Assembly: GCA_030019435.1 (NCBI GenBank)
Contig: JASEEV010000001.1
Span: forward strand, 28,064 to 92,063
DNA from: Methanocellales archaeon
GTDB taxonomy: Archaea > Halobacteriota > UBA148
DNA length: 64,000 bases
Direction: 5' to 3'
The position numbers were made by a program, and so were the translations under genes. The notes beneath the pieces are model-generated. The model was not told the origin of the DNA, did no database searches, and saw only the letters and a list, made by a program, of their open reading frames with translations. Positions 3,417-15,796 of this stretch are shown piece after piece; the stretch's first letter is position 1; the number at the start of each line of letters is the position of its first letter.

Positions 3417-4024
3417 CTCTTGACTCGTTCAGACCATATGTTAGGGAGATGATCGACTCGATCGCAAGTTTGTTGGAGAAGCTGGGGGTTGATCCAAATT
3501 CCTTATCAGTTGCATCGTTCGTCTTTGCAGTGCTGGCCGGCGTTTTCTTCTATTTCAGATTTTTACTCCTCGCTGGACTCATGATCTTTCTAAATGCATC
3601 CTCTGATGCAATGGATGGGGCACTGGCACGTCATATTGGTACAGCAGACTTGCGAGGTGACTTTCTGGATCATGTGATCGATAGATATGCTGACATATTC
3701 ATCATCTGCGGAATCTTCTTTGGAGGATATGCACCCTGGCAGATCGGTGTTGCTGCAATCACAGGCGTGTTATTAACCAGTTATCTAGGAACACAAGCAC
3801 AGGCTGTGCACGTTGGGAGATATTATGGAGGCATTTTGGGCAGAGCTGATCGGCTGGTAGTGATATTGGTCGCGACCATCGCAAATTTTGCCTACCCGCT
3901 CGAGGTCTATTGGCTACCCATCCTCGGATGGATGTTGCTCGCAATAGCAATTACAAGCCATTTCACAGCCATTCAACGATTTGTGTACATTTGGCAGGAG
4001 CTATCAAACTTGGGAAAGAGTTGA
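3413..4024 (+). CDS. CDP-alcohol phosphatidyltransferase family membrane protein (archaetidyl-lipid headgroup synthase type)
   Basis: Signature DAMDGALARxxxxxxxxGxxxDxxxD in the translation, plus multiple hydrophobic helices. Confidence 0.75.
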   Translation: MTLDSFRPYVREMIDSIASLLEKLGVDPNSLSVASFVFAVLAGVFFYFRFLLLAGLMIFLNASSDAMDGALARHIGTADLRGDFLDHVIDRYADIFIICGIFFGGYAPWQIGVAAITGVLLTSYLGTQAQAVHVGRYYGGILGRADRLVVILVATIANFAYPLEVYWLPILGWMLLAIAITSHFTAIQRFVYIWQELSNLGKS

Positions 4025-4273: not shown

Positions 4274-5498
4274 ACATCTCGCCAGAATCAGATAATGGTA
4301 CCGTTTTCGGAGCGCTGGCTAGCACTTTCTTTACAGCTTTATCGAAATCGCTCATCATTACCGACTCTCTACCATCCCGGATGGCAAACATACCAGCTTC
4401 CATGGCGATGGCGCTCATATCAGCACCACTTAAGCCATCCGTTGCAGATGCTATTTGCCCAAAGTCGATTTCATCAGCGAGATTCATGCCCCTGGTATGG
4501 ATTTTGAGTATCTCAACCCTGGACTCAAAGTTTGGTAGCGGCACATAGATCATTCTGTCGAGCCTACCAGGGCGAAGCAAAGCAGGATCGAGGATGTCAG
4601 GTCGATTGGTCGCTGCGATGACCTTAACGTCGCCTCTCGGATCAAATCCGTCCATCTCTGCTAGGAGTTGCATGAGCGTTCGCTGAACTTCCCTGTCGCC
4701 GGATGTCGCACTTTCGAGACGCTTAGCGGCTATCGCATCCAACTCATCGATGAATATGATGGATGGTGATTTTTCTCTCGCCATTTCGAATAACTCGCGA
4801 ACAAGACGAGCGCCCTCACCGATATACTTTTGAACCAATTCGGAGCCCACAATCCTAATAAACGTGGCCTCTGTCCGCTTGGCAACAGCTTTTGCCAACA
4901 GTGTTTTCCCGCTTCCAGGTGGACCATACAATAACACTCCTTTTGGTGGCTCTATGCCCACCTTAGCGAAGGCCTCTGGCTTAATTAACGGCAGCTCAAC
5001 GGTCTCCTTTAATTCTTGTATTTGCGCCTCGAGCCCACCTATTTGATCGTAATCCACAGATGGAGATTCGATGATCTCCATGCCATAAACTGTTGGATCC
5101 TTGGGTGGCGATAACACGCCAACAACTGCAAGCGTCTGCTGATTCAGAGCGACCCTGGTTCCAGGCAGTAGATCGGATCCTTCGATAAATTGCGATGCGT
5201 TTACCACAAATTTGGGGCCTGTACTGCTCTTAATTACCACTTTCTCGTTTTCTAGAACATCCAGGATGGTCCCCACCACTAATGGTGGACCTTTCAATCT
5301 TTCAAGCTCACTCCTCAGCTTTCGAATCTCTCGCTCGTACTGTATTTTTTGGTTTTCGGCAAATCGCCTTTCACTCTCTATTCTGCGATACTCCTCCCAA
5401 AGTCTGAGATTTTTCTCCTCTAATTGACGAACTCTATCAAGCAAGTATTTCGAGAACTCACCTCGCTCCGTGTCAACACTTGCATCATCCATCTGCAA
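4266..5498 (-). CDS. pan: Proteasome-activating nucleotidase (AAA+ ATPase)
   Basis: N-terminal coiled coil, Walker [16 protein letters not shown], Walker B IIFIDELD, second region of homology, C-terminal hydrophobic-Tyr-x tail. About 410 aa, typical of archaeal PAN. Confidence 0.9.
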
Positions 5499-9891: not shown

Positions 9892-10548
9892 CTAAAATTG
9901 TAATGGAGTTGCTCCACGACTTTTCATGATGTGCTGGGGGATGTCAATGACCTTCTCAATGAAATCAATGATGTTTCCATCACTTGTCGCTACTACTGCA
10001 TTACACGTCTTCAGCTCGTGATCAACGCTCCTCGATGTGCGCACATCTCCCTCCAGCCCGAACTGAGTTAGCATCTCCCTAACATGTCTTGCTAGTTCTC
10101 CGCTCTTGCTGACCTGCGAATCGAAGAGGAATAGGATGAGAGAAGGAGAGTTTTCAGATAACACGGTCAATATCTCAGTGAGAGCCACATCCGTTACTTC
10201 TGTCCACTTGTATTTCCCAAAAACACCTTTTATATCTCTGATAAAACCGTCATCGCACAAGACGATCTCTCGGGCAAGCACGCTTTCGGTCGTGATCAAG
10301 ACGTTATATCCATCTATGATGACTTCCGTTCCCTTTATCTCATCGCATGCTATCAACTTCTTCCTACGCTGCTCTGCAAGACTTGATGGGAGCACTGCCC
10401 TGGTTATCATATGTCTTTCCGAGAACGAAAGTTTGTAGTGGTTACTTACAAATCGAATGACACTTGTGGAAGGATATCCACGATCCATGAGGGATCGTAT
10501 ATCCCTGGCGGGAGCTTCAAGACGTTTGAGCATCATTAACGACTTCAT
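9892..10548 (-). CDS. NYN/YacP-like predicted RNase domain protein
   Basis: VIIDGYNVL (NYN DGxNV motif) and downstream ATSDGNIIDF resemble YacP/NYN nucleases. Weak call. Confidence 0.4.
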   Translation of the reverse strand: MKSLMMLKRLEAPARDIRSLMDRGYPSTSVIRFVSNHYKLSFSERHMITRAVLPSSLAEQRRKKLIACDEIKGTEVIIDGYNVLITTESVLAREIVLCDDGFIRDIKGVFGKYKWTEVTDVALTEILTVLSENSPSLILFLFDSQVSKSGELARHVREMLTQFGLEGDVRTSRSVDHELKTCNAVVATSDGNIIDFIEKVIDIPQHIMKSRGATPLQF

Positions 10549-10676
10549 CTCTTGAGATAAAAACCTGATGACCAGCTGGTGCTTCCATTGCTTGGGACTA
10601 GATTCTCCTTGTTAGTAGCGGATATTTTGGCAATGCATATTTAAGAAAGATGAGAGTAATATAGTGATGATGACCT

Positions 10677-10967
10677 GTGAAGAGTGATTTAGACCTAAAA
10701 ACCTATGAAAGAACCATCTATGAAAGAATCGATTTGTTTATTCAACACTTTCATGCTGTTTCTGATAAACTAGAAGATGAGGAAGACGTTAAATCGAGTA
10801 TTATCGACAAGTTTATAGACATTTTGGGTTGGGATTTAGGCGATCCTTTAGAGGTCAAAAAAGAGCAAAAAATCGAGGGCAGAAAAAAGGCAGATTATGC
10901 CCTCAAAGTCGATGGAAAACCAAAATTTAAAATACAAAGTCTATTGGGTAAATCATGGAACGGGTGA
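10677..10967 (+). pseudogene. Truncated fragment of a restriction enzyme/methylase N-terminal (HsdR_N-like) domain
   Basis: The 96-aa ORF has the Mrr-cat/HsdR_N-like core (ILGWDLGDP...EGRKKADYALKVDGKPKF). It ends abruptly and runs into a 190-bp AT-rich tract. Confidence 0.4.
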
Positions 10968-11157
10968 AATCTTAAAAACAAAATTTGAAATTATCCGATA
11001 AGAAATAGATAGTAAAATCATGACTTAGTCTTCTATTCATCAAGTTTAAATTTTGAGTCTATTGTTCAACTGAAATTCATAAATCTGTCATTTGGCAACA
11101 GGCCCTTATTTGATTAAATTAATCTACTTTCCGAACTACTGGGGTATTTAGAACCCT

Positions 11158-12339
11158 TTATGGGTATAATTCGTCTGGTATTAACATTTTGAAGTAACCT
11201 TTGCCCTTCTCAAGTGCACGATATTTGCATATAGCTGCGAGAGTAGAGTATCTTGGAGGAGGTAATTTATCGGACATTTTTATAACTCTGGCACCTACAA
11301 GTCCAACTCCTCTAAAAGTCAAGTCCCCCGGAGTAAGATTATATGCCCGTGGATTTGAAACTGTGTAAAGCTCATCCAAAATATACTCTTTTCTATAACG
11401 TTTAATAGTCCATTGCCAAGTTAACAGAACACCGCTTATATCTCGATTATAGTCCTGAGTGAATTCCCTTTTAACAATAACCGGAAACATTCTATCCGGA
11501 GCCTGATACCTCGTAAAATCCATAGAGATCAAAGCAGGAGAATCTTCTGGCAGCTGTTTTTTAGCCTTCTTAAATGTATTACGTACACGTTTAACTTCGC
11601 TGTAATCTACGGGAGCAGAAACATACACGATTCTATTATCACTATACTCAAAGCCTTCGGCTTGAATGAACACAGGAGATATCCTAATCGTGGGGACTCC
11701 ATTGTGGCGTAGAGGTTTACCATCAAAACGAAGAATGCCCTCTTTTACAATCTCAACAATTTGTGAGATATGCTCTTCAGTCAAAGCGCCAGGCAAGTCT
11801 ATCTTAATGTCACAAGATTTCTTAGCCTGGTCCAGCTCATCAAAAACACGCTCCTCTAAAACCTTAGCAAGCTTACCGAACGCTCTCTGTTTCTCTGACG
11901 CCCTAAATTTCTTACATTCAATGTATATCCATTTATTTCTGATTTTTACCCGCATATCTGGAGCTCTCTTTCCAGAGGATGGATAGAGTTCAATGCATTT
12001 ATTTTTTGAGTTCCTTCTAAAAAGAGCGGCTATGTGCGCCTCGTAAACAGCCGCCTCGTACTTTTTGCGATCTTTTAAATTATTAATTAGTTCATCGAAG
12101 CCAATAACTCCTTGTAGAACTTCGAGGTCTAGCCCTAACGTGGTGAGTTGCATTATGTTCGGCATTCCTTTCTGCTTCCATTTTGCACCGATTGGATGGG
12201 CCGACTTGAAATCTTTCGAAGCTTCTGCTTGTAGCCATTCTTCTCCAAGAATATCTTTGAGCAGATTAAAAATATGGATACACTGTTTCCTACTGAATTG
12301 ACTACCATTTATGGATTCGTTGTCTTCAATCCACACCAA
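11158..12339 (-). CDS. Hypothetical protein with predicted PD-(D/E)xK nuclease core
   Basis: The 393-aa ORF is AT-richer than its neighbours. Central segment YEAAVYEAH...CIELYP...PDMRVKIRNKWIYIECKK fits the E...PD...(D/E)xK arrangement. N- and C-terminal domains unrecognised. Confidence 0.45.
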   Translation of the reverse strand: MVWIEDNESINGSQFSRKQCIHIFNLLKDILGEEWLQAEASKDFKSAHPIGAKWKQKGMPNIMQLTTLGLDLEVLQGVIGFDELINNLKDRKKYEAAVYEAHIAALFRRNSKNKCIELYPSSGKRAPDMRVKIRNKWIYIECKKFRASEKQRAFGKLAKVLEERVFDELDQAKKSCDIKIDLPGALTEEHISQIVEIVKEGILRFDGKPLRHNGVPTIRISPVFIQAEGFEYSDNRIVYVSAPVDYSEVKRVRNTFKKAKKQLPEDSPALISMDFTRYQAPDRMFPVIVKREFTQDYNRDISGVLLTWQWTIKRYRKEYILDELYTVSNPRAYNLTPGDLTFRGVGLVGARVIKMSDKLPPPRYSTLAAICKYRALEKGKGYFKMLIPDELYP

Positions 12340-12487
12340 TTTTGCATCTCCTTATAGCTAAAATTGCATATAACTACCTATATGCGAACCTCCTCATAAA
12401 AAGACTCTTACTAAATTTAAAGCTAAACTTGTTTACTACCCAATCATCGACTTGGTTAGAAGAATTTGACCCTCGGAAGTACTGAAG

Positions 12488-12507
12488 CACATCAAATCTC
12501 ATCTGGT
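12488..12507 (+). repeat. Copy 1 of 20-bp palindromic repeat (CACAYCARATCTMATCTGGT)
   Basis: cacatcaaatctcatctggt, followed by gaatagcatgg (extended similarity to copy 3). Lies in the divergent intergenic region. Confidence 0.6.
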
Positions 12508-12556
12508 GAATAGCATGGGAATAAAGCTTTAAGCTTTTGAGACAAATTGTTTTTAG

Positions 12557-12775
12557 GTGCCAGAAATGAGCAGCGTAAGTAAGACGTTTGATTGGTATAC
12601 TCGACATCCAAAAGAACTTAGGGGACATGCAGGAAAACACGTCGCAATAGTAGACGAAGAGATCGCCAGCGTCGCCAACTCCGCCATAGAAGCCTATGAG
12701 AAAGCCAAGAAAAAGTATCCGAAAAAGATACCCCTTCTAACATACGTTCCAAAGGGCGAAACACTGGTCCTATGA
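12557..12775 (+). CDS. Small protein (72 aa), upstream partner of the aspartic protease
   Basis: 72-aa ORF with a conserved-looking core HAGKHVAIVDEEI. Its stop overlaps the start of the next gene (ATGA), indicating translational coupling. Confidence 0.5.
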   Translation: MPEMSSVSKTFDWYTRHPKELRGHAGKHVAIVDEEIASVANSAIEAYEKAKKKYPKKIPLLTYVPKGETLVL

Positions 12776-13182
12776 CTAAGAAACACTATTTTCCCTATAA
12801 GAGAGAGCCCTCTAAGATATTTGGAGAGATCAGCAGACCAGTCGTCGAGGCTTATCTAGAGACAAGGGACGGGGATTGGTTCCAAGTGTCTCCTTATGCG
12901 GATTCTGGGGCAGATGTCACGTTATTCCCCAGATCAATCTGTGAGATCTTGGGTCTAAAACTCAAAGAGGGAGAGAAGAGCAGTATCACTGGCGTCTCAG
13001 GCGAAGAAATAAAAATATTCATCCATAAAATCAAGATCAGAATTGGTGACGAGGGGCTTGAAATACCTGCCGCCTTCGCCGAGAGGGAGGACATACCCTA
13101 TCTACTGGGCAGAGCAGGCATCCTGGATTATTTTGATATTTGGTTTGAGAAGGACAGGGTTTGCTTTATCGTTAGGAATTAG
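12772..13182 (+). CDS. Retropepsin-like (clan AA) aspartic protease
   Basis: Catalytic motif ADSGADVTLFP (D-S/T-G-A); about 136 aa, the size of single-lobe retropepsin-like proteases; C-terminal ILDYFDIWF dimerisation-like strand. Confidence 0.7.
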   Translation: MTKKHYFPYKREPSKIFGEISRPVVEAYLETRDGDWFQVSPYADSGADVTLFPRSICEILGLKLKEGEKSSITGVSGEEIKIFIHKIKIRIGDEGLEIPAAFAEREDIPYLLGRAGILDYFDIWFEKDRVCFIVRN

Positions 13183-13246
13183 TTGAATTGGTTGAGGGAG
13201 ATCATAAGCGTAAAGATTACTAGAATGCCAACTTCAATAACCCAAT

Positions 13247-13266
13247 CACACCAAATCTCATCTGGT
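13247..13266 (+). repeat. Copy 2 of 20-bp palindromic repeat
   Basis: cacaccaaatctcatctggt between the convergent protease and vapC genes. Confidence 0.6.
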
Positions 13267-13290
13267 TATGGTGGAGCGAAAAGGGGAACA

Positions 13291-13713
13291 TCAAAACTCT
13301 GGCAACCTCTTGATTTTATCAACGTTTTCAAAGCTACGATCAAATGAATAGATCTCTTTTATTCCCTCCCTCCTCATGATCTGTATGGCAAGAGAATCGT
13401 TCGGATCCATCTTCGTCTCATCCATGAGCTCTATCGCTCCCAGATAATCGTTTTTGGTGACGTCCACGATCTTGATGTTGTCCGATGAGTACAGTCCGAT
13501 CAATAGCGTGGCAAGCTCATCCAGTGGCAATGCTCGTTTTAGTATATTTGAAACCTCAGACAGATGAACGACGGCTGTTATCACCGTCTCTCCTTCATTT
13601 ATCCTCCTCACAATTTCCTTTGATTTCTCCTTCATCGCCTTTTGCTTTGGACTCAGGTCATGCACTGGCTTATAATAGGCGTAGATGAAGATGTTTGCAT
13701 CTAAGAACCTCAA
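13291..13713 (-). CDS. vapC: PIN-domain toxin
   Basis: MRFLDANIFIY N-terminus (first acidic residue) and SFDRSF C-terminal motif; 140 aa. Confidence 0.8.
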   Translation of the reverse strand: MRFLDANIFIYAYYKPVHDLSPKQKAMKEKSKEIVRRINEGETVITAVVHLSEVSNILKRALPLDELATLLIGLYSSDNIKIVDVTKNDYLGAIELMDETKMDPNDSLAIQIMRREGIKEIYSFDRSFENVDKIKRLPEF

Positions 13714-13964
13714 ACCTCTCCCTCATAGAACTCTTTTTCAAATTCGTCCCAATCTCCTATGTTCATGCCTAGATCGGCTTTATCAAAGAATTTCGTCAGG
13801 TCCACCTTCTTCTTCGGAATCATCTTGAGATATCCTTTTCTCTTTATTATGAACACCTCATTGGTCCCTTTCAACTCTTCTTTTCTCCAGTCAGACGGCA
13901 ACACGAATCTCCCTTGCTCATCAACTTTCTTCGCTTCAACGCCCTCGACCAAATCTATCACCAT
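13710..13964 (-). CDS. vapB: AbrB/SpoVT-fold antitoxin
   Basis: GRFVLPSDWRKE swapped-hairpin motif; 84 aa; stop overlaps the vapC start by 4 nt. Confidence 0.7.
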   Translation of the reverse strand: MVIDLVEGVEAKKVDEQGRFVLPSDWRKEELKGTNEVFIIKRKGYLKMIPKKKVDLTKFFDKADLGMNIGDWDEFEKEFYEGEV

Positions 13965-14107
13965 AGTAAAGTAAATGTGCCATATATTAATAGTTTATGG
14001 TCAAAATAATATAATCTGGCATCACGTCATATACTTCGCATTGATCCTGACATAATCGTATGTGAGATCGCAGCATCATCGGTCGTTTAGTCACATCGCA
14101 GATCAAA

Positions 14108-15796
<1,689 letters not shown>

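Follow-up and report, generated by a model that had tools for sequence, protein, structure and literature searches.

The 64,000-nt stretch of a Methanocellales archaeon analysed here (contig JASEEV010000001.1, positions 28,064 to 92,063; hereafter, the window) carries two overlapping forward-strand genes, one for a small protein of the DUF5678 family and one for a retropepsin-like aspartic protease, which together form a genuine two-gene module, widespread and not characterised before. Considerably more than 100 independent loci conserve the pair, far more than would be expected of chance open reading frames (ORFs). A preliminary description of the window, made from the letters of the sequence, had likened the pair to a toxin–antitoxin (TA) system. 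We also favour a TA-like module, with the protease as the effector and DUF5678 as its inhibitor, but do so tentatively, giving this reading, which the genomic evidence strengthens circumstantially without proving it, a little less than an even chance.

The two ORFs lie at 12557..12775 and 12772..13182, and the stop codon of the first overlaps the start codon of the second (ATGA), as can be read directly from the sequence and as the preliminary description had it. The smaller ORF had been given as 72 aa, and it is present at that length if the GTG at 12557 is taken as the start. The true start is, however, most likely the ATG at 12566, which would give a protein of 69 aa; this start is preferred because the GTG lies inside a Shine-Dalgarno-like AGGTG, because a 97%-identical homologue (P0030) is called by NCBI as 69 aa, and because other homologues begin at the equivalent Met.

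By motif and predicted fold, the 136-aa product of the second gene is clearly a clan AA retropepsin, of a divergent branch outside the curated families. The AlphaFold2 (AF2) model was confident (predicted local distance difference test, pLDDT, 93.7; predicted template modelling score, pTM, 0.84) and agrees with the single-lobe retropepsin first proposed: a Foldseek comparison with the PDB returned 174 matches at E ≤ 1e-3, the best 50 of the 174 all being retropepsins with a probability of 1.00. The closest solved structures were Rickettsia APRc and then the proteases of the feline, human and simian immunodeficiency viruses (FIV, HIV and SIV). A profile built from 16 homologues found the Ddi1 retropepsin domains (E 2e-6) as well as FIV protease, with the DSGA and LLG(R) motifs of our protein matching DSGA and LLG/LFG in Ddi1. 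The protein nevertheless scored below every curated clan AA cut-off, both in Pfam (PF13975, 21.5 versus 28.2; PF13650, 20.5 versus 24.3; PF09668, 19.1 versus 26) and in NCBIfam (TIGR03698, 21.9 versus 57.35).

The A-D-S-G-A-D signature from which the protease was first recognised is present, and its catalytic Asp, D44, holds up in a proper alignment. The 16-sequence alignment A1 shows no variation at D44, G46, D48, G74, G77, G113 and R114; position 45 is either Ser or Thr, and L111-L112-G113-R114 is invariant or nearly so. The motif D[ST]G[AS] was found in 94/94 distinct intact homologues, with the glycine-rich flap and LGRxD likewise kept. Judged by this conservation, the protease is probably a catalytically competent enzyme under purifying selection, and its activity, as in related proteases, should depend on homodimer formation.

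To define how strictly the two genes are associated, we scanned one genome per GTDB species, anchoring on the protease, which gave 73 loci, 68 of them with room upstream. An intact same-strand DUF5678 gene lay directly 5' of the protease gene in 66/68 of these testable loci, and the co-occurrence of the two families in other genomes, on which the preliminary description had staked the pair, proved near-universal. The departures from pairing were frameshifted copies, contig edges and two solo proteases. Of the 66 junctions measured, 46 were overlaps of 10 nt (29 loci) or 4 nt (17 loci), and the rest fell within a few nt. The protease family had been introduced as an archaeal one. Archaeal it is (Methanophagales, Methanosarcinales, Methanoperedens, Archaeoglobi, Halobacteria, Bathyarchaeia, Hadarchaeales, Thermoplasmata and DPANN lineages), but not exclusively so, with bacterial hosts among CPR/Patescibacteria, Deltaproteobacteria, Binatia, Gemmatimonadota, Margulisiibacteriota, Planctomycetia and Chloroflexota. 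The window protein stands nearer to a bacterial copy, from Binatia (51% identical), than to the copies of Methanosarcinales (43%), a sign of spread across domains. At least six genomes have two loci each, and some loci contain tandem pairs.

Approached from the other gene, with neighbourhood contexts judged from precomputed annotations, the DUF5678 contexts inspected always had a gene of ~108–137 aa directly 3', without a confident Pfam match, and in the DUF5678 loci scanned with our narrow protease hidden Markov model (HMM) such genes were confirmed as the protease. Beside a distant DUF5678 (L154), the next gene encodes a different clan AA protease that scores above the Pfam cut-offs. In L111 (959–1641; also L113, L115, L116, L119 and L121), a second and very divergent pair stands directly 3' of the canonical pair: its first member is an ORF with a weak likeness to DUF5678 (E ~5e-4 against our HMM; no Pfam match), and its second is a 141-aa protein that has a D-T-G-A-S motif and matches clan AA below threshold. 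These sequences suggest a module that was duplicated in tandem and then diverged. In L104 (324–752) and L108 (2960–3886), DUF5678 is followed by an archaeal-type ATPase (PF01637, E 2.8e-19) and there is no protease; in L108 the DUF5678 gene is split by a stop codon. The ATPase could be an alternative partner, or a neighbour that remained after the protease was lost.

The small partner, which the preliminary description took to be essentially uncharacterised, already belongs to a Pfam family, DUF5678 (PF18929; 51.4 bits versus a cut-off of 23.2, E 9.8e-14, profile positions 2–48 of 49), the same family given by the precomputed annotation of its homologues. The description holds to the extent that nothing on DUF5678 or its pairing with a retropepsin was found in the searchable literature. 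A profile search with DUF5678 returned only small stand-alone proteins. When 1.84 billion cluster representatives were searched exhaustively with HMMER, 1,670 DUF5678 clusters (50% identity) were obtained at E ≤ 1e-3, the best 150 of the 1,670 being 52–182 aa long without a protease fusion. The AF2 model (pLDDT 86.8) has the order ααββαβ followed by a C-terminal tail, VPKGETLVL, which is conserved and yet unstructured in the model (last-block pLDDT 71). Residues P62 and L69 of the tail rank among the most conserved positions of the protein, and the family pattern is P-x-x-E/D-x-L-[IV]-L. A tail that is conserved but predicted to be unstructured is what a binding element may be expected to look like. 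In a covariation analysis of the two proteins (mutual information with average product correction, 92 pairs, Neff 68), DUF5678 column 57 (β3) came top, with protease columns 51–56, 101 and 109; this signal is weak and confounded by phylogeny, and we do not use it as evidence. Among variants of the family, P0155 is a tandem double DUF5678 of 182 aa, P0257 is DUF5678 plus a charged 85-aa C-terminal extension, and P0046 is a plain DUF5678 whose NCBI label, 'succinyl-CoA synthetase subunit alpha', is evidently a mis-annotation.

The two-gene module is clearly a horizontally moving unit, a cassette of 0.7–1.1 kb that is inserted at the 3' ends of genes. When distinct pairs with 300 nt on both flanks were scanned, direct repeats bracketed 9/75 of them, against 4/305 random pseudo-inserts from the same loci. 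The repeats were 21–115 nt long in the scan and 26–158 nt, at 81–97% identity, when extended; since they stand 716–1082 nt apart, only the two genes are enclosed. They are duplicated ends of flanking genes, and their sequence differs from locus to locus. Four examples are given in Table 1, and further repeat-bracketed pairs are those of L011/L012, L015, L054, L069 and L098. No integrase was found inside the repeat-bracketed units; the window itself had no systematic integrase search.

Within the window, a classical vapBC module travels in the same vehicle as the pair. A unit of ~31 nt occurs in three copies and nowhere else in the 64 kb, and 0/100 shuffles yielded three matches. The palindromic repeats that were first noted as bounding the pair are therefore real, but they look, from their sequence, like insertion-site duplications of the 3' end of the SepCysS gene and its terminator-like hairpin, and not like members of a dispersed repeat family. 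The intact copy 3 is a perfect palindrome, CACCAGAT-cta-ATCTGGTG, with an 8-bp stem and a 3-nt loop; on the reverse strand it is terminator-like (z −3.05), the only such site of the region, and reads TGC TAT TCA CCA GAT TAG. Over 31 nt, copies 1 and 3 share 87% identity. The likeness of SepCysS to solved structures stops ~7–10 residues before the tail encoded by the repeat. From the SepCysS 3' end, the layout is vapBC cassette, duplicate, DUF5678/protease cassette, duplicate, with spacings of 861 and 759 nt. On a 1,408-bp contig from another Methanocellales metagenome-assembled genome (MAG), L089, which is ~99% identical to the window across the pair, similarity begins at the outer repeat (~12483–12484); leftward of this the sequence is unrelated, and the 180 nt of L089 beyond the outer repeat were matched nowhere in the window. 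The SepCysS 3' end thus looks like an insertion hot spot that stacks small cassettes, each bounded by a copy of the terminal hairpin. The vapBC neighbour had been correctly recognised, with a PIN domain gene and, overlapping it upstream, a small gene that fits a VapB. We rejected a structured RNA or tRNA as the source of the repeats, since they had no Rfam match at E ≤ 1 and there is no tRNA in the window.

Table 1. Positions of the features discussed, in window coordinates except for the loci named L033, L053, L021 and L013
Feature	Position	Strand	Remarks
Shine-Dalgarno-like AGGTG	12555..12559	+	6 nt 5' of ATG 12566; contains GTG 12557
DUF5678 gene, 69 aa	12566..12775	+	alternative GTG 12557 gives 72 aa; proposed cognate partner/inhibitor of the protease
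Retropepsin-like aspartic protease gene, 136 aa	12772..13182	+	start codon overlaps DUF5678 stop (ATGA)
Catalytic D44-S45-G46-A47 codons	12901..12912	+	D44 at 12901-12903
Repeat copy 1 (AAGCACATCAAATCTCATCTGGTGAATAGCA)	12485..12515	.	degraded SepCysS 3' end and hairpin duplicate; outer cassette boundary
Repeat copy 2	13244..13274	.	boundary between DUF5678/protease and vapBC cassettes
Repeat copy 3, intact	14105..14135	.	overlaps last five codons and stop of SepCysS
vapBC-type cassette	13291..13964	-	bounded by repeat copies 2 and 3
VapC/PIN gene	13291..13713	-	PIN domain E 1.9e-16
VapB-like small upstream gene	13710..13964	-	4-nt overlap with VapC; fits a VapB
SepCysS (Sep-tRNA:Cys-tRNA synthase) gene	14118..15284	-	housekeeping, context only; PDB 2e7i, E 2.4e-167
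L033 repeat	3574-3661 and 4420-4462		tRNA-Leu(CAG), 3' 43 nt duplicated
L053 repeat			3' end of unidentified 236-aa gene
L021 repeat			3' end of small gene
L013 repeat			3' end of nucleotidyltransferase (MNT-type) gene

The TA-like arrangement that the preliminary description saw in the pair extends to several features of type II systems such as vapBC, phd/doc and parDE. There are two small co-directional and translationally coupled genes, the smaller first, with a 4-nt overlap; the module is mobile, with a patchy distribution shaped by transfer and several copies in some genomes; other TA pairs adjoin it; in the window it shares a repeat-bounded insertion site with vapBC; and the partner gene outlasts the enzyme gene. 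In the mechanism we propose, that of an addiction or abortive-defence module, DUF5678 would be made first and in at least equal amounts via translational coupling, and would bind the protease, a presumably cytoplasmic enzyme, and keep it inactive. The C-terminal tail may be the inhibitory element, either by occupying the cleft like a pseudo-substrate or by contributing a strand that blocks the dimer interface. Were DUF5678 lost or degraded, the free homodimeric protease would cleave cellular or viral proteins, with growth arrest as the outcome. Alongside the pair, some loci also hold PIN/MazE, ParE/PhdYeFM, DUF4160/DUF2442, HicB or nucleotidyltransferase (MNT-type) genes. In Bathyarchaeia (L079–L083, 2182–3634), the pair adjoins a divergently oriented PIN and MazE-type (vapBC-like) pair, with an MNT-like nucleotidyltransferase close by, so that an unrelated lineage repeats the association with vapBC.

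The two genes also decay unequally. The DUF5678-anchored sample comprised 53 distinct metagenome loci with at least 430 nt downstream; for the pattern scan of metagenomes, DUF5678 alignments A3 and A6 were too divergent and the narrower A7 was used, which biases the sample to one subgroup. By a strict criterion, 28/53 of these loci had an intact protease, and ~5 more had N-terminally shorter variants. It was clearly truncated in ~10/53 (e.g. L093, L097, L139, L152 and L159) and undetectable in 10/53, where the next genes include those for a HicB-like antitoxin, an archaeal ATPase and an RNA polymerase subunit. The converse, a protease without DUF5678, was seen in 2/68 protease-anchored loci. 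Loss or truncation of the enzyme beside an intact DUF5678 is far more frequent than the reverse, which is the pattern that would be expected of a toxin and its antitoxin, although the two samples were built differently (MAG genomes versus raw metagenome contigs), a narrow protease HMM is here set against a broad DUF5678 HMM, and the protease gene, being twice as long, is a bigger mutation target.

Those caveats on the decay comparison are among several points that weigh against the toxin–antitoxin interpretation. The sister copy on L089, which speaks for it, has a 2-nt insertion in the D-S-G codons at ~600–615 (window 12898–12912; GGATTTTCTGGGG versus GGATTCTGGGG) that shifts the frame and breaks the protease whilst DUF5678 stays intact; this is a single case, and could be either a true inactivation or an assembly error. 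The structure search with the DUF5678 model gave no match among solved folds and no recognisable antitoxin or DNA-binding fold, and the known antitoxin folds (ribbon-helix-helix, AbrB, helix-turn-helix, Phd/YefM) are not seen in it. Neither protein was matched by the defence and TA models of PADLOC, and we rejected a known defence system on this ground. Many copies of the pair stand alone among housekeeping genes and not in defence islands. Relatives of either protein were absent from a tblastn search of 50,697 phage records and 72,556 plasmids, from a scan of IMG/VR and from PHROG, and a viral or plasmid origin was rejected accordingly. Finally, no aspartic protease is known to act as the toxin of a TA system.

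Some of these same points would sit comfortably with an obligate, non-toxic two-subunit protease, in which DUF5678 is a cofactor, chaperone or substrate adaptor (compare ClpS, or the non-catalytic domains of Ddi1) that is needed for the folding, dimerisation or substrate choice of the enzyme, the whole serving regulated host proteolysis. Strict co-occurrence and translational coupling suit a heteromeric enzyme equally well, and the closest relatives by sequence, the Ddi1 retropepsin domains, work with accessory domains. A DUF5678 without a DNA-binding or antitoxin fold, the many loci that are single insertions among housekeeping genes, and the lack of a match to any defence model all point the same way. 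We nevertheless judge this explanation unlikely, whilst taking it seriously. The distribution is patchy and crosses domains, with several copies in some genomes; the cassettes are repeat-flanked and occupy variable sites, and housekeeping complexes are rarely so mobile; a vapBC cassette occupies the same insertion site; and an intact DUF5678 often persists beside a missing or truncated protease, which is unexpected of a subunit that is useless alone. That persistence of orphan DUF5678 genes without the protease also bears on the idea that DUF5678 is a precursor whose conserved C-terminal region the protease would cut, yielding a functional peptide or an activated protein. Retropepsins favour aliphatic cleavage sites and the DUF5678 tail resembles such sites: its E-x-L-[IV]-L is conserved, hydrophobic, extended and predicted to be unstructured, and strict pairing would be expected of an enzyme and its substrate. 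DUF5678 is, however, mostly a compact folded domain with no leader/core layout; the tail is often at the very C-terminus, where cleavage would free only 1–3 residues, and extensions are variable; and the inspected neighbourhoods had no recurring export, modification or immunity genes. A precursor role is thus quite improbable.

The least probable of the explanations, to the point of being nearly negligible, is a Gag-Pro-like DUF5678-protease polyprotein, made by programmed −1 ribosomal frameshifting and cutting itself as in retroviruses. The protease does lie in the −1 frame at the common −4 and −10 junctions, and the window has an AAA-AAG stretch ~45 nt before the DUF5678 stop. But the protease has its own ATG at a conserved position overlapping that stop, an in-frame stop lies 0–10 codons before the protease start in about 40% of 94 loci, junctions of −14, −11, −8 and 0 and small positive gaps set the protease in other frames, and no fusion protein was found among the best 150 of the 1,670 DUF5678 clusters. 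We rejected the fusion on the in-frame stops, the varied junction frames and the lack of fusions.

Set beside known systems, the module differs from the type II TA pairs in that its putative toxin is an aspartic protease and in that its putative antitoxin has no recognisable antitoxin fold, besides the lack of a match to TA or defence HMMs. The protease itself is like APRc (PDB 5c9b/5c9f), Ddi1 (4rgh, 7efy, 2i1a) and TIGR03698 (clan_AA_DTGF) in its single-lobe fold of ~130 aa, its expected homodimer, the D-S/T-G-A motif, the flap and an L-G-R near the C-terminus. It is unlike them in that sequence identity is only 12–22%, below every curated cut-off, and none of the three is described with a DUF5678 partner. 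Ddi1 has UBL and UBA (ubiquitin-like and ubiquitin-associated) domains, which are absent from the window protease, and APRc has a membrane anchor, which the window protease also lacks.

Two published families come closer in genomic setting. In Sulfolobales, type III CRISPR-Cas has been associated with small retropepsin-domain proteins of ~100 aa, the Saci_1895 type (Vestergaard et al. 2014, PMC3973734). Like our protease, these are archaeal, small and stand-alone, and their genomic setting connects them with defence, but they would be a different and shorter family, linked to cas genes and not to DUF5678. No CRISPR-cas genes were seen around the pair, in a check that covered its annotated neighbourhoods and not the remaining parts of the 64-kb window. 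In the TA survey of Makarova et al. (2009, PMC2701414), the only protease module is that of the COG2856 (ImmA/IrrE) Zn-protease with Xre, and there is no aspartic protease. That module also couples a small protease gene to a small partner gene in a mobile, TA-like two-gene unit; however, COG2856 is a metalloprotease that cleaves its helix-turn-helix repressor partner, acting as an anti-repressor and not as a toxin, and it has no homology to the window proteins.

As a mobile unit, the cassette resembles integrative elements that target gene 3' ends (attL/attR) and integron cassettes, in that the 3' end of a gene is duplicated on the far side, cassettes are stacked, and TA genes are among the cargo. 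It differs from both in being only 0.7–1.1 kb long without an integrase inside, and in having locus-specific repeats of 21 to ~200 nt. In the 31-nt repeat of the window, a hairpin of simple form with an 8-bp stem that comes from the SepCysS 3' end, no GTTRRRY core or attC-like structure was seen. Taken at its most ambitious, the module would be the first TA or abortive-defence system with an aspartic protease effector, travelling in Archaea and Bacteria as a miniature integrase-less cassette of 0.7–1.1 kb that enters the 3' ends of tRNA and protein genes, duplicates tens of target nt and uses the same vehicle that carries vapBC; we regard this compound claim as doubtful, if by no means far-fetched.

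Prokaryotic retropepsin-like proteases are widespread and almost wholly uncharacterised, and the genetic setting of one large branch of them is now defined: these proteases have an obligate small companion in DUF5678, a family of 1,670 or more clusters at 50% identity, and the two form a unit whose genomic behaviour is like that of addiction and defence modules. If the protease is indeed a toxin, it would represent a new enzymatic class among TA and abortive-infection effectors, and DUF5678 would be a natural protein inhibitor of a retropepsin, which bears on how such proteases are regulated and on the evolution of cellular and retroviral proteases. Insertions bracketed by repeats at gene 3' ends suggest that very small cassettes move in a way so far unrecognised; in the window this is shared with vapBC, and it is open to comparative analysis.

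The insertion site in the window may have received more than the two cassettes. The G+C content (GC) over ~10.4–14.1 kb is lower than that of the flanks; in the part just past the outer repeat (10400–12480) it is 0.34–0.41, versus about 0.46–0.50 in the flanks. This part holds a 393-aa ORF (11158..12339, reverse strand) and a 96-aa ORF (10677..10967, forward strand), neither with a Pfam match, and could represent one more foreign insertion at this site.

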